A stretch of 64,000 bases of DNA, from NCBI RefSeq assembly GCF_044647545.1, contig NZ_CP172818.1; one strand, 5' to 3'. This stretch comes from Escherichia coli (GTDB taxonomy: Bacteria; Pseudomonadota; Gammaproteobacteria; Enterobacterales; Enterobacteriaceae). Below, one piece after another: positions 350-62,480 of this stretch. The first letter of the stretch is position 1; each line of letters begins with the position of its first letter. The notes below the pieces were generated by a model. It was not told the origin of the DNA and did not search any database. It worked only from the letters and a program-made list of their open reading frames with translations. The position numbers and the translations under genes were made by a program.

Positions 350-1762
350 TTACGGTACCGGATTGACCAACAGTTGCCCAATCGAACCACGGTCCGCCAT
401 TTCCAGCGTCTGACTGTTGAAGTAGAACGGGAAGTGCGCCCAGGAAGGCTGACCGAAATAAACAAGCAGCTCCACTTGTCCGTCAACCCAAACGGTATCT
501 TTCCAGCCTCTGTCTTCCGGGAACGGCATCGCGCCATTCACGTTACGGATCTGGAACATCACGCCTTCAATATGGAACGCTTGCGGCTCGTCCGCGCGCA
601 CCGTCCAGCGTTCCCACGTTCCTTGCTGCGCAGTAACATCAATACGGTTGACGTCCCACAACTGCCCATTAATCCCCGGGTCATCACCCAGACTGATATC
701 GCGACTACGAATCGGCGAACCGGCCATGATTTCAGTTGGCAGCAAGCGCATCGGAAGACTGTCTGTGACCAGCGGCAGAAGGCCGGTTGGGCGCAGCGTT
801 AGTACCAGCGTAGAAACCAGAATGCTGGATGGCTCAAAGAAGCCGCGAATACGATCAACAATGCTCGCCGCTTCACCACAGGTGATCGACACTTCATCAC
901 CGTTGCTCATATCCACCAGAATCTCGCGGCGCTCGCCCGGTGCCAGCGAAAGTTGCTTCACCGATACAGGAGCGGGCAGGAATCCCTGATCGCCAGAAAT
1001 CACATGTAACGGGCGACCATCGCTCATCTGTAGTTGATAGCGACGAGAGTTCGACGCGTTCAACAGACGCAAGCGCACCCAGCCACGCGAGACTTCAACG
1101 TACGGGCTTTGTACACCGTTAACCAGCAGCGTATCGCCAACAAAGCCGCCGCTTCCCGGTTCGTTATATTCCGGCGTACCAAAGTTATCCAGCCGTTTAT
1201 CCTGAATAATGACCGGAAAATCATCCACACCATAATGGTTGGGGATAGGCAGCGATTTGCTGACTTCATCTTCCACCAGCCACATTCCGGCAAGGCCGTT
1301 ATAGACCTGCTGAGCCGTGCGGTTGGGAGTATTGGCGTGATACCACAGAGTAGCTGCGTTCTGGCGAATGGGCAGTACGGGTGCCCAGTCAGCGTTTGGC
1401 GACATCATCCGTGCCGGACCGCCCATCAGCGGGCCTGGTACCTGTAGCCCGGCCACCGTCATTGAGACATTTTCTGTCAGGCGGTTGCTGTAAATAAGCT
1501 TAACATCGTCGCCCTTCCAGACGCGGATAGTCGGCCCCAGGTAACGACCATTGATTCCCCAAACCGACGCGCGTGTCCTTGGCGTAAATGACCAGTGCGC
1601 ACGTTGTACAGTCATAAACAGCGGTTGCCCACGGCGAGATTCAAGCAGCGGCGGAACGGGTAGCGGTTGCTGTTGCCCGGCTGCGCTGGCCTTCAGGGGA
1701 ACAGCGCCTGCACAAAGTGCAATCCCCGATGCCTGAATGAACTGACGCCGACTGAGTGACAT
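350..1762 (-). CDS. ftsP: Cell division protein FtsP (SufI), Tat-exported multicopper-oxidase-like protein
   Basis: 470-aa ORF; N-terminus MSLSRRQFIQASGIALCAGAVPLKASA is a twin-arginine signal peptide; length and sequence match FtsP/SufI. Confidence 0.93.
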   Translation of the reverse strand: MSLSRRQFIQASGIALCAGAVPLKASAAGQQQPLPVPPLLESRRGQPLFMTVQRAHWSFTPRTRASVWGINGRYLGPTIRVWKGDDVKLIYSNRLTENVSMTVAGLQVPGPLMGGPARMMSPNADWAPVLPIRQNAATLWYHANTPNRTAQQVYNGLAGMWLVEDEVSKSLPIPNHYGVDDFPVIIQDKRLDNFGTPEYNEPGSGGFVGDTLLVNGVQSPYVEVSRGWVRLRLLNASNSRRYQLQMSDGRPLHVISGDQGFLPAPVSVKQLSLAPGERREILVDMSNGDEVSITCGEAASIVDRIRGFFEPSSILVSTLVLTLRPTGLLPLVTDSLPMRLLPTEIMAGSPIRSRDISLGDDPGINGQLWDVNRIDVTAQQGTWERWTVRADEPQAFHIEGVMFQIRNVNGAMPFPEDRGWKDTVWVDGQVELLVYFGQPSWAHFPFYFNSQTLEMADRGSIGQLLVNPVP

Positions 1763-2807: not shown

Positions 2808-5066
2808 TTACTCTTCGCTATCACCGCTGCTGGCACGGCGAGGAGAGTCGATCTCAACACGATCGATACGCTGCAAACCGCGCATCAACGTACCGCGGCG
2901 TCCACGTTCGCCAGTGACTTTCTGTAGCTCTTCCGGACGCAGTTTAATTTTGCGTTTCCCAACATGAATGGTCAGCGTGCTTTGCGGCGGCAGAACGTAC
3001 AGTTGCGCCAGACCATCCTCGCCACGCGCGGCTTCTGCCGACGGAATGTTGATAATCTTATTGCCTTTGCCCTTCGACAACTGCGGCAGATCGCTTACCG
3101 GGAACATCAACATACGGCCTGCCTGAGTGATTGCCAGCAGCATATCGGAAGCATCCTCAATCACCACCGGCGGCATAACATGGGCATTTTCCGGTAAGGT
3201 GATCAAAGCCTTACCTGCACGGTTACGCGCCACCAGATCGTTAAAGGTGCAGACGAAACCGTAACCCGCATCGGAAGCCATCAGCAGTTTCTGATCGTCG
3301 CTTTCCATCAGCATATGGTCAACGGTCGCCCCAGGCGGCAACGTTAATTTGCCGGTGAGCGGTTCGCCCTGACCACGCGCCGACGGCAGCGTAATCGGGT
3401 CGATGGCATAGCTACGACCGGTGGAATCAACAAACACTACCGGTTGGTTGCTCTTACCTTTCACCGCCGCTTTGAAGCTATCGCCCGCTTTATAATTCAG
3501 GCCCGGCGCGTCGATATCATGGCCTTTAGCGCTGCGTACCCAGCCCATCTGCGACAGCACAATGGTGACAGGTTCAGACGGCAGCATGTCGTGCTCGCTC
3601 ATCGCTTTCGCTTCTTCGCGTTCCTGCAACGGCGAACGACGTTCGTCACCGTAGGCTTGCGCGTCTGCCTGCAGTTCTTTCTTCAGCAGGTTATTCATTT
3701 TACGCTCGGAAGCCAAAATGCCCTGCAACTGGTCGCGCTCTTTTTCCAGCTCACTCTGCTCACCGCGAATCTTCATCTCTTCCAGTTTGGCAAGATGACG
3801 CAGTTTCAGTTCGAGGATCGCTTCCGCTTGGGTTTCCGTAAGGCCAAACCGCGACATCAGCGCCGGTTTCGGTTCATCTTCATTACGAATGATCTCAATC
3901 ACTTCGTCGATATTGAGAAACGCCACCAGCAAACCTTCGAGGATATGCAGGCGCTTGAGGACTTTCTCCAGACGATAATTCAGTCGGCGGCGCACGGTAT
4001 CGCGGCGGAACACCAGCCATTCGGAGAGGATTTCCAGCAGGTTTTTCACCGCCGGACGACCATCCAGACCGATCATATTGAGGTTAATGCGATAGCTCTT
4101 TTCCAGATCGGTGGTAGCAAAGAGGTGGTTCATCACCTGATCCATATCCACGCGGTTGGAACGCGGCACAATCACCAGACGGGTCGGGTTCTCGTGGTCA
4201 GATTCATCGCGCAGATCGTCAACCATCGGCAGCTTTTTGTTGCGCATTTGCGCAGCAATTTGCTCCAGTACGCGCGCACCTGAAACCTGATGCGGCAATG
4301 CGCTGATAACCACCGCGCCATCTTCTTTCTTCCAAACCGCGCGCATACGCACTGAACCACGTCCGTTCTCGTAGATTTTACGAATCTCGGCGCGCGAAGT
4401 GATAATTTCCGCTTCAGTCGGATAATCCGGCCCCTGCACGATATCCAGCAGCTGATCGAGCGTGGTTTTCGGCTGGTCGATTAATGCGATTGCCGCCTGA
4501 GCCACTTCACGCAGGTTATGCGGTGGAATATCGGTCGCCATGCCGACGGCAATACCGGTGGTGCCGTTAAGCAAAATGTTTGGCAGACGGGCAGGTAGCA
4601 TTTTCGGCTCCTGCAAAGTGCCGTCGAAGTTTGGCACCCAGTCAGCCGTCCCCTGCCCCAGCTCGCTCAATAGCAGCTCGGAATATTTCGACAACCGGGA
4701 TTCGGTGTAACGCATTGCCGCGAACGATTTCGGATCGTCCGGCGCACCCCAGTTCCCCTGACCATCAACCAGCGGATAACGGTAAGAGAACGGCTGCGCC
4801 ATCAGGACCATCGCTTCATAACAGGCAATATCGCCGTGCGGATGGTATTTACCCAGTACGTCACCGACGGTACGGGCCGATTTTTTAAATTTGGCGCTGG
4901 CATTCAGGCCCAGTTCAGACATCGCATACACAATGCGCCGCTGAACGGGTTTCAGACCATCACCAATAAACGGCAACGCACGGTCCATGATCACGTACAT
5001 GGAGTAGTTTAAGTAGGCGTTTTCCGTAAATTCATGTAGCGCAAGGCGCTCTGCCATATCGCTCAT
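2808..5066 (-). CDS. parC: DNA topoisomerase IV subunit A
   Basis: 752-aa ORF; GyrA-family N-terminal domain with QRDR motif [12 protein letters not shown]; codon 80 (4827-4829) encodes Ile. Confidence 0.95.
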
Positions 5067-6811: not shown

Positions 6812-6919
6812 GGTATTCCTTACCGGAGAAATTATAAGCCCAACAACAATACGCCTGTGGCATTGTTCGCTCAAACTTATCGCGAGTGATTTGGCTCACA
6901 CTCCGGTAAAGATTCCCCA

Positions 6920-10382: not shown

Positions 10383-10735
10383 ATGTTAGCACTCTCTAAA
10401 AAAGTCCAGTCGGAGATTTGGTTTTCAACCCCCATAAATCTATTTAAAATAATCTGCGTAACACGCTGATATTTTCATTTTTAGTTATTCAACACCACAA
10501 TTATCAACTCGCAGAAAGTCCACACCAACGTTGTAAATTAACCCTGTGCTAGTTGGAATGATGAGAAATTGCTATCAGTATTGTCATTTTCAGAAAATAT
10601 TTATCCCGCATCGGTGAATCAGAGCAAGATCAGACTTTTGCTAAATTCGCAAAAGACTTTGCACATTTTGCTAATTTCACCGTACCGCTCTGTGACGTAC
10701 TATAGTCGGCAAACGTCTCACCTTGAGGTTAAAAA

Positions 10736-11347: not shown

Positions 11348-11662
11348 ATGATTACAGTAATCGCAGAAATCCGTACTCGTCCTGGTCAACATCACCGTCA
11401 GGCAGTGTTGGATCAGTTTGCTAAAATCGTTCCAACCGTACTGAAAGAAGAAGGTTGCCACGGCTATGCGCCAATGGTGGATTGCGCTGCTGGCGTGAGT
11501 TTCCAGTCTATGGCACCGGATTCTATCGTGATGATTGAGCAGTGGGAAAGCATCGCGCATCTTGAAGCGCATCTGCAAACCCCGCACATGAAAGCATATA
11601 GCGAAGCCGTAAAAGGTGACGTGCTGGAGATGAATATTCGTATCCTGCAGCCGGGGCTTTAA
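11348..11662 (+). CDS. ygiN: ABM-domain quinol monooxygenase
   Basis: 104-aa ORF 30 bp downstream of mdaB, preceded by aggag SD. Confidence 0.9.
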   Translation: MITVIAEIRTRPGQHHRQAVLDQFAKIVPTVLKEEGCHGYAPMVDCAAGVSFQSMAPDSIVMIEQWESIAHLEAHLQTPHMKAYSEAVKGDVLEMNIRILQPGL

Positions 11663-11709
11663 TCCTGCCTTGTTTGCCCGGCCATCCTGACCGGGCAATG
11701 TTCTTTCCT

Positions 11710-13605
<1,896 letters not shown>

Positions 13606-19787: not shown

Positions 19788-19802
19788 GCTATCCCCTTTT
19801 TT

Positions 19803-19957
19803 CTAACACCACAATACCCCCCCACCACAAAACAAAAAAAACAAAAAAAAAAAAAAAAAAAAAACAAAAAAAACAACCAAAAAAAAATAAACAAAACCAA
19901 AAAAACAAATCCCAATACCCGAGGCACTCGCCATCCGGTTTAAAAAAAAAAAAATTA
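19803..19957. repeat. Low-complexity A/C-rich tract containing an A22 homopolymer (19843-19864) and an A13 run (19942-19954)
   Basis: Between 19811 and 19910 the top strand is almost exclusively A and C; non-coding, sits between the convergent ygiC and ygiD stops. Confidence 0.9.
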
Positions 19958-23178: not shown

Positions 23179-23463
23179 ATGATTGACCCGAAAAAAATTG
23201 AGCAAATCGCTCGCCAGGTTCACGAATCAATGCCTAAAGGAATCAGGGAGTTCGGGGAAGATGTGGAGAAAAAAATCCGCCAAACCCTACAAGCGCAGCT
23301 GACGCGTCTCGATCTGGTAAGCCGCGAAGAATTCGACGTTCAGACGCAAGTCCTGTTACGGACTCGTGAAAAACTGGCGTTACTGGAGCAGCGCATCAGT
23401 GAACTGGATTTGAAAAAACCAACACAAAAACGGGCCAGACGGCCCGTAATATCAGTGTTCTAA
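23179..23463 (+). CDS. ubiK: Ubiquinone biosynthesis accessory factor UbiK (YqiC, BMFP coiled-coil family)
   Basis: 94-aa product from ATG 23179 ([16 protein letters not shown]...), SD caggga upstream; the 114-aa frame is an upstream extension. Confidence 0.8.
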
Positions 23464-23652
23464 TTCAAGTTCTCTGGTTTGCATCATTTGTTGGCAATAC
23501 CAGGCATAACGTGCGCAAAACCAGGTTCTATGTTCTTCATCCATGTTACCAGTAACGGCCAGAATATCGACCGGGCGACCTTCTGCGTGCATTCTGGCAA
23601 AACTACGCGCCAGGAAATCGAAATTATTTAAAGAATTAAGACTATGATCCAT
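23452..23652 (-). CDS. glgS: Surface composition regulator GlgS
   Basis: 66-aa product [57 protein letters not shown]...; 3' end overlaps the ubiK 3' end by 12 bp. Confidence 0.88.
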
Positions 23653-23920
23653 AAGCACATCCTCCGGTTATCGCATACCTTTTAAGGCCATATGCTTTTT
23701 CTGATTTCAGTATTCCCCAATCAGTGTAGTGCCTTTAAACATAACGTGCGTAAATATATTGTCCCCGATCACACTTTTTAGTGAAAAATAAAAAACCATA
23801 TTAAAAGACTTTCTCTTCCAGAACTTCTCTAACATGTGTTATTATTAACAAAGATAAATGTAAGCAAGGAAACTATCCTAAAGTAAATATTGCGTCACTA
23901 AATGGACATTGGAGTGACAT

Positions 23921-26545: not shown

Positions 26546-26659
26546 CAGAGGGGGAGAAATCCTCCCTCACCCTTGTTCCTTTACTTGGGGTAGGTTGAAA
26601 AAACAACAGCGTCAATAGGCCTGCCAGGTTCGAAGCGAGATCTGTGAAGCGCTTTCCGG

Positions 26660-34469: not shown

Positions 34470-34530
34470 CTAAAAACAGAAATCCCTAGGTCGGATAAGA
34501 CGCACAAGCGTATCCGACACTATTCCTCAA

Positions 34531-46903: not shown

Positions 46904-46940
46904 CAAAGGCTGACGAGAAATCGTCAGCCTTTTTCTTTTT
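46904..46940 (+). terminator. Intrinsic terminator downstream of ileX
   Basis: Hairpin ggctgacga gaaa tcgtcagcc followed by tttttcttttt. Confidence 0.75.
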
Positions 46941-46949
46941 ATATATCAG

Positions 46950-47714
46950 TTACTTTGCGTGCCAGTAAGCCGCTGCACGTACCCGCTGTGGGTCATACTG
47001 TTCCGCTTCAAAGCGGCGGCTTAAATTCTTAACGACTTTGCCTTCGCCGGTTATCCAGATGAAGTAATCATCGGCAGGGATTTGCATCTGCGCCAGACGC
47101 GCATCTACCGCCTGCTCATCATGCGCCAGCCATTCGATATTAAAACCATCAAGGTGCGCGAGATAATCCTGGCAGGCGTGATCCCGCACGCTAACCAGTG
47201 CGCTAACTTGCGGTTTAACAGCAAGTTTGCTCAACGTTTCCAGGCGGCGGCGCAGTGCGGGCATTCCGGATTCATCGCAGACATACAGCTGATACGCGTA
47301 ATCCTCTGGCACCACCAGCGAACCGCGCGGACCTGCCACCGTGAGTTTATCGCCCGGTTGCGCCTGCATTGCCCAGCTGCTGGCGACGCCACCGTCGTGA
47401 ATAAAGAAATCAATCGCCAGTTCATGGCGTAGTTCGTCATACAGCGGCGTATAGTCACGCGACGGTGGGCGTGGTCCTTCCGGCCAGACGATGCCCTCTT
47501 CCGTTACCGTTGGCGGCACAAAGTGAGCATCAGATTGAGGAAAGAAGAGTTTGCTGTGATCGTCAAAGCCGCGCGATGTAAAACCGTCCAGCGCCTCGCC
47601 GCCAAGGACAATGCGCTGAAAACCGGCGCTAATACGCTCAGCGCGTAGCACAGTCAATTCACGGAAGCGCAGATCATTGCGAACGCGCTGCGGGTAGCGG
47701 GGGGAGTTATTCAT
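46950..47714 (-). CDS. yqjH: NADPH-dependent ferric-chelate (siderophore) reductase
   Basis: 254-aa ORF, FAD-binding siderophore-interacting family. Confidence 0.9.
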   Translation of the reverse strand: MNNSPRYPQRVRNDLRFRELTVLRAERISAGFQRIVLGGEALDGFTSRGFDDHSKLFFPQSDAHFVPPTVTEEGIVWPEGPRPPSRDYTPLYDELRHELAIDFFIHDGGVASSWAMQAQPGDKLTVAGPRGSLVVPEDYAYQLYVCDESGMPALRRRLETLSKLAVKPQVSALVSVRDHACQDYLAHLDGFNIEWLAHDEQAVDARLAQMQIPADDYFIWITGEGKVVKNLSRRFEAEQYDPQRVRAAAYWHAK

Positions 47715-47764
47715 TGTTATCGCCTTCGTGATAGTAATCAGATATATCTAAATAAATTTCGCAA

Positions 47765-47790
47765 ATGATAATGATTGTTAATCATGATAA
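47765..47790. promoter_or_regulatory. Fur box in the yqjH-yqjI divergent promoter region
   Basis: tgataatgattgttaatcatgataa closely matches the Fur consensus gataatgataatcattatc. Confidence 0.7.
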
Positions 47791-47854
47791 ATGCAAGCGA
47801 TTTGTAGAACTGATATATCTGAAGTATGAGAAGACATTCAGCGTCGTAGCAAGG

Positions 47855-47890
47855 CTGCCGGATGCGGCGTGAACGAATTATCCGGCCTGG
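47855..47890. repeat. REP-like palindromic element
   Basis: gctgccggatgcggcgtgaacgaattatccggcctgg resembles enterobacterial REP sequences. Confidence 0.45.
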
Positions 47891-47990
47891 ATGTGAGGTG
47901 TATTCACGTTTAAAAATCATTTTTATACTTGCAAAAGCGCTCATATCAGATATAAATTAGATATATCTAATTAAGCAAAAGGAGGCTGAT

Positions 47991-48614
47991 ATGAGCCATC
48001 ATCACGAAGGGTGTTGTAAACATGAAGGCCAGCCACGCCATGAAGGCTGCTGCAAAGGTGAGAAGTCAGAACATGAGCACTGCGGACACGGTCACCAGCA
48101 TGAACACGGTCAATGCTGCGGTGGTCGCCACGGTCGCGGCGGCGGTCGTCGGCAGCGTTTCTTTGGTCACGGTGAATTGCGTCTGGTGATTCTGGATATT
48201 CTCTCGCGCGATGACAGCCACGGTTACGAATTGATTAAAGCGATTGAGAATCTAACCCAGGGGAATTACACCCCAAGCCCGGGCGTCATCTACCCAACGC
48301 TGGATTTTCTGCAGGAGCAGTCGCTGATTACCATCCGCGAAGAGGAAGGTGGTAAGAAGCAGATTGCACTGACCGAACAGGGCGCGCAGTGGCTGGAAGA
48401 AAACCGCGAACAGGTGGAGATGATCGAAGAACGCATCAAAGCGCGTTGCGTTGGTGCTGCACTCCGCCAGAACCCGCAAATGAAGCGGGCGCTGGATAAT
48501 TTTAAAGCGGTGCTGGATTTACGCGTCAACCAGAGCGATATCACTGATGCACAAATAAAAAAGATCATTGCGGTGATCGACCGCGCCGCTTTTGATATTA
48601 CCCAACTGGATTAA
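47991..48614 (+). CDS. yqjI: PadR-family metal-responsive transcriptional repressor YqjI
   Basis: 207 aa; His/Cys/Gly-rich N-terminus (MSHHHEGCCKHEG...HEHCGHGHQHEHGQCCGG), PadR winged-helix. Confidence 0.9.
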   Translation: MSHHHEGCCKHEGQPRHEGCCKGEKSEHEHCGHGHQHEHGQCCGGRHGRGGGRRQRFFGHGELRLVILDILSRDDSHGYELIKAIENLTQGNYTPSPGVIYPTLDFLQEQSLITIREEEGGKKQIALTEQGAQWLEENREQVEMIEERIKARCVGAALRQNPQMKRALDNFKAVLDLRVNQSDITDAQIKKIIAVIDRAAFDITQLD

Positions 48615-52472: not shown

Positions 52473-62383
<9,911 letters not shown>

Positions 62384-62392
62384 TTAGCAACG

Positions 62393-62480
<88 letters not shown>

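Follow-up and report, generated by a model that had tools for sequence, protein, structure and literature searches.

The window analysed here, a 64,000-nucleotide stretch of Escherichia coli DNA, contains a parC gene in which codon 80 reads ATT and encodes isoleucine. We are highly confident that this is the classic ParC S80I target-site fluoroquinolone-resistance allele, carried on the parC allele of the ST648 clone, reached from an AGT serine codon by one G-to-T change, and acting through the secondary-target mechanism. The parC features are given below with the evidence used for each.

2808..5066, minus strand: parC coding sequence, DNA topoisomerase IV subunit A, 752 aa (open reading frame list and translation, K-12 alignment, TIGR01062, identity with ST648)
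4827..4829, minus strand: parC codon 80, ATT, Ile (S80I) (reading of the window and K-12 alignment)
4828: mutated base, the middle of codon 80, T on the minus strand and A on the plus strand (strain 1428 differs solely at parC nucleotide 239)
4815..4817, minus strand: parC codon 84, GAA, Glu, unchanged, the second anchor of the quinolone-binding bridge (K-12 alignment)

The open reading frame at 2808..5066 on the minus strand begins with ATG in the open reading frame list. It is parC by its score against the NCBIfam equivalog model TIGR01062 (parC_Gneg), 1423.4 bits with a cut-off of 628.9, and by its plsC-parC-ygiS neighbourhood, the order of which is conserved in the window. On the same protein the gyrA models stayed under their cut-offs (TIGR01063, 593 vs. 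877). The wider gene order, ftsP-plsC-parC-ygiS-ygiV-ygiW-qseBC, is that of the K-12 locus minus mqsRA. Both the mqsRA toxin-antitoxin genes (6913-6917) and the ygiL-yqiGHI genes (23409-23920) of K-12 are absent from the window, as they are from ST648 genomes.

The alignment to parC of K-12 MG1655 (b3019) was ungapped, with 2259 nt in each gene and 98.7% nucleotide identity, and 25 of the 29 nucleotide differences fell at third codon positions. At the protein level, the window ParC differs from K-12 ParC by S80I (AGC to ATT) and D475E only. Since the alignment is ungapped and the genes are of equal length, the numbering of residue 80 is correct and not shifted. The idea that the numbering had slipped, or that the gene was gyrA or a paralogue, so that the residue would not be ParC 80 at all, found no support: the equal-length alignment (752 aa) speaks against the former, and the parC_Gneg score, the gyrA models under their cut-offs and the retained plsC-parC-ygiS order speak against the latter. 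Its probability is practically nil.

Read on the minus strand, positions 4832-4830 are GAT (Asp79), 4829-4827 are ATT (Ile80), and 4817-4815 are GAA (Glu84). The isoleucine stands within the motif KYHPHGD-x-ACYEAM, where susceptible references have serine; in K-12 the codon is AGC. The first-pass annotation, which had reported Ile at codon 80, a wild-type Ser at that residue and an unchanged Glu84, was thus right on all three points.

In order to examine the origin of the substitution, ATT was swapped for AGT in the window parC and the resulting sequence was used as a search query. This AGT-restored gene had a perfect match (2259/2259 nt) in eight genomes, including that of strain 1428, a canine strain from Scotland, whose parC differs from that of the window at nucleotide 239 only (G vs. 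T) and has AGT (Ser) at codon 80. Because the same allele with AGT/Ser80 exists in these genomes, Ile80 is derived on this backbone through a single base change and is not ancestral. The susceptible AGT allele carries D475E too, and D475E is therefore a lineage polymorphism.

The first-pass annotation had raised an ancestral Ile80 as one of the findings that would overturn its reading, and the eight genomes show the opposite state on the identical allele. No support was found for Ile80 as an ancestral or neutral natural state of the lineage instead of a resistance mutation, although D475E in ParC and T172A in ParE are examples of neutral differences from K-12 in this lineage. A serine codon occupies this position in 3,457 of the 5,426 complete E. 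coli genomes, and the solved structures agree. The 63-aa stretch around residue 80 is the same as in 1ZVU (E. coli ParC) and in 9KGT and 6WAA (Klebsiella pneumoniae topoisomerase IV) except for the change from Ser to Ile, while 5EIX from K. pneumoniae and 2XKJ/2XKK from Acinetobacter baumannii have Ser at the 80 position and differ at one to three other residues of the stretch. The position is thus Ser in every solved Gram-negative topoisomerase IV structure compared (1ZVU, 5EIX, 6WAA, 9KGT, and 2XKJ/2XKK). An ancestral Ile80 is accordingly extremely improbable.

The spelling of the codon was examined with a census of the 5,426 complete E. coli genomes. The megablast queries were 30-mers in which codon 80 lay inside every possible 28-base seed, so that a match required the exact codon. 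The genome counts in this 30-mer census were as follows.

Codon 80 AGC, Ser: 2,749 genomes of the 5,426
Codon 80 AGT, Ser: 708 genomes of the 5,426
Codon 80 ATC, Ile: 1,319 genomes of the 5,426
Codon 80 ATT, Ile: 529 genomes of the 5,426

The four counts sum to 5,305 of the 5,426 genomes; the other genomes of the collection must have a different codon 80 or sequence variation next to it. Among the genomes with ATT are JJ1886, strains labelled O25b:H4-ST131, and those with the parC allele of the window; among those with AGT are the phylogroup B2 strains UM146, Nissle 1917, and NC101. S80I therefore has two common spellings, of which ATT is the second, and each lies a single G-to-T transversion away from a serine codon, ATT from AGT and ATC from AGC. 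The first-pass annotation had contrasted ATT with ATC, the codon it gave for S80I alleles; the two codons do differ, but ATT is not unusual, being found in 529 of the 1,848 genomes with Ile80. It is spelled ATT here because the Ser80 codon of the lineage itself is AGT. A literature search for an explicit statement of the AGT-to-ATT or AGC-to-ATC change in E. coli parC gave primer tables and reports on other species only. As a separate observation, a single record that the complete-genome collection lists as a plasmid has a parC match, and its codon-80 30-mer is the ATT form.

These counts lead to a simple typing rule, in which ATT or ATC at ParC codon 80 reports whether the allele had spelled Ser80 as AGT or AGC, respectively. 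The rule was observed directly for the allele of the window, and its extension to other lineages follows one-step parsimony.

The parC gene of the window is 100% identical to that of many genomes, which include, among the matches listed, the ST648 genomes MS6198, ECONIH1, and IMT16316 and a strain named 'ST648'. ST648 is a multidrug-resistant clone of phylogroup F. Identity with MS6198, ECONIH1, and strain 'ST648' extends to the ParE protein, and the DNA shared with ST648 genomes is ~100% identical, with one coding SNP relative to ECONIH1 over 64 kb. The likeness ends at three islands and the 3′ end of ubiK, where colinearity with ST648 fails; the MLST loci (adk, fumC, gyrB, icd, mdh, purA, and recA) are located outside the window.

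The second subunit gene of topoisomerase IV is located 6.6 kb from parC, and its change at codon 458 lies ~7.4 kb from S80I.

11710..13602, minus strand: parE coding sequence, DNA topoisomerase IV subunit B, 630 aa (TIGR01055, 1248 bits; compared with K-12 parE)
12229..12231, minus strand: parE codon 458, GCG, Ala (S458A, from TCG), the second topoisomerase IV QRDR change (K-12 comparison)

Relative to K-12, the ParE of the window carries T172A, which is a lineage polymorphism, and S458A. The parE of strain 1428 differs from that of the window at nucleotide 1372 (T to G, S458A) and at two 3′-terminal bases tied to an island junction. Because codon 458 is TCG (Ser) in strain 1428, whose parE on the same backbone is otherwise identical, S458A is derived as well. 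A survey of ciprofloxacin-non-susceptible isolates reports it as the typical parE change of ST648 and found S80I in 90% of the isolates (PMC8710580). S458A had not been part of the S80I finding in the first-pass annotation. In MS6198, whose parC is identical to that of the window, gyrA has S83L (TCG to TTG) and D87N (GAC to AAC). An Ile80 allele accompanied by ParE S458A and, in MS6198, by these two gyrA changes is a further argument against an ancestral isoleucine.

An alternative origin is that homologous recombination brought in the ATT allele from a different resistant lineage; ST131, for example, has ATT as well. ATT is common to several clones, and recombination is known in the region, since a 1.5-kb patch at nfeF-nfeR is ~5% different between ST648 sublineages. 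In addition, strain 98218 joins ST648-type parC and parE genes to a different ygiQ-ftsP flank. Against import, the allele is one base in 2,259 nt away from the susceptible allele on the same backbone, as mutation in situ predicts. A transfer from ST131 would be expected to bring other SNPs together with E84V, but Glu84 is intact here. Import is therefore highly unlikely, and we retain the in situ G-to-T change from AGT.

The substitution is of a catalogued kind, ParC S80I being listed by PointFinder-type tools. The gene, the residue, the substitution, and the motif are the same as in the catalogued E. coli allele, Glu84 is intact, ParE S458A stands alongside, and gyrA S83L/D87N occurs in relatives with the same allele. 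The only difference is ATT instead of ATC, which reflects the AGT serine codon of the lineage.

The proposed mechanism would begin with a G-to-T transversion at the second position of the AGT codon for Ser80, giving ATT; in lineages with AGC, the same change would give ATC. Ser80, the counterpart of GyrA Ser83, anchors, together with Glu84, a water-metal ion bridge to the C3/C4 keto-acid of the quinolone. The replacement of Ser by Ile would remove one anchor of the bridge, so that the drug would poison topoisomerase IV inefficiently. Published work describes a bridge anchored by a serine and an acidic residue, with anchor mutation as the main route to target-mediated resistance and mutant enzymes that remain catalytically active (PMC11015057). 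For E. coli topoisomerase IV, a passage in PMC9917921, citing Aldred et al. (2014), states that the bridge mainly positions the drug.

As quinolones act primarily on gyrase in E. coli, S80I alone is silent. S80I gives a high ciprofloxacin MIC only once gyrA has S83L, with or without D87N, and ParE S458A belongs to this stepwise series. Ciprofloxacin MICs in isogenic MG1655 strains were 0.016 µg/ml with S80I alone, the same as in the wild type, 1 µg/ml with S80I plus gyrA S83L, and 32 µg/ml with S80I, S83L, and D87N, with no measurable fitness cost (PMC2714960). Close counterparts of S80I are GyrA S83L in E. coli gyrase and the Ser-to-hydrophobic substitutions of ParC/GrlA in other species. In E. 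coli, topoisomerase IV ranks second to gyrase as a target, and S80I differs in this respect from GyrA S83L, which alone raised the MIC 24-fold while S80I alone had no effect (PMC2714960).

The window therefore presents a resistance-associated genotype and no proof of resistance, because the phenotype depends on gyrA, which lies outside it, as do the plasmid quinolone-resistance genes and the efflux regulators. From the parC and parE alleles, the source isolate would be expected to be resistant and to carry gyrA mutations.

Other parts of the window were compared with the same relatives. At 46939-48464, the 1.5-kb nfeF-nfeR patch is ~5% different from MS6198 and K-12 and 99.9% identical to ECONIH1-type ST648; it is a recombination patch separating ST648 sublineages. 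At 58197 in ygjI (open reading frames 57389-58342 and 58227-58811), an 11-bp deletion frameshifts an amino-acid permease gene. The frameshift marks an ST648 sublineage, since it is present in ECONIH1, whose annotation calls the gene a pseudogene, and absent from MS6198. That the deletion was an artefact was considered and rejected, as ECONIH1 shares the frameshift. A K-12-based consensus was likewise rejected as a full explanation of the window, which has neither of two K-12 features, mqsRA and the ygiL-yqiGHI fimbrial operon, and whose nfeF-nfeR patch matches ECONIH1-type ST648, not K-12.

No complete E. coli genome was collinear with positions 1-25000 of the window; the best matches had ~100% identity in 4-5 pieces spanning 35.8-43.5 kb. 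The window was compared with ST648 by blastn. Relative to ECONIH1, three islands are missing.

290-348: missing 7.7-kb island with FadR, dehydrogenase and TRAP-transporter genes
11661-11713: missing 7.3-kb island with siderophore receptor, ABC and MurR genes
19788-19954: missing 3.7-kb assT-dsbL-dsbI island

All three islands are present in every close ST648 relative examined, and their flanks are 100% identical to the window. Strain 98218, which has the same parC and parE, is likewise without the first island, and its natural empty site is identical to the first junction, with one mismatch outside it at window position 287. The second junction is identical to K-12 intergenic sequence. The third, between ygiC and ygiD, consists of a 167-bp A/C-rich filler with runs of 22, 13, and 9 adenines and a fragment of a K-12 terminator; a 451-bp query spanning this filler had no match covering >65% of it in the 5,426 complete genomes.

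Smaller anomalies were found elsewhere. The ubiK gene (23179-23460) has 64 bp less at its 3′ end (23409-23419) than in ST648, and an unrelated tail of 18 residues stands in place of its last 23. Small intergenic indels or swaps relative to ECONIH1 and MS6198 were observed at 10418-10434, 26549-26590, 34471-34510, 48628, and 62459-62461, some of which look like corrupted copies. The sole coding SNP relative to ECONIH1 in the 64 kb is at position 1579 in ftsP (350-1762, minus strand), where GGG is changed to AGG, giving FtsP G62R; base-by-base comparison showed that this SNP is missing from MS6198, ECONIH1, and strain 98218.

As an account of this pattern, an assembly artefact or sequence editing seems likelier than natural streamlining of an ST648 strain. 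It is unlikely that the source was a real, hitherto unsequenced ST648 derivative which had precisely lost three accessory islands and kept the parC and parE changes; if it was, it would represent a streamlined sublineage of a pandemic clone.

Since none of the complete genomes has the filler at 19788-19954, the three islands are absent, and parts of the intergenic DNA look corrupted, codon 80 itself could be suspected of being a sequencing, assembly, or editing artefact. Against this, the whole parC gene is 100% identical to natural genomes (the first 30 among the matches listed), and 529 genomes have ATT in the same 30-mer. Apart from two coding changes, one at the 3′ end of ubiK and the other the G62R SNP in FtsP, the anomalies are intergenic or at island junctions. 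There is hardly any chance that codon 80 is an artefact. The artefact-like stretches do not affect parC or parE, and parC itself is a base-for-base match to natural genomes.

The S80I allele of the window is a resistance marker of the textbook kind, found here in a known clone, and has practical value only, with no new biology. In practice, it flags the source as very probably belonging to, or closely related to, the fluoroquinolone-resistant ST648 clone, and high-level ciprofloxacin resistance would be predicted if its gyrA carries S83L and D87N.
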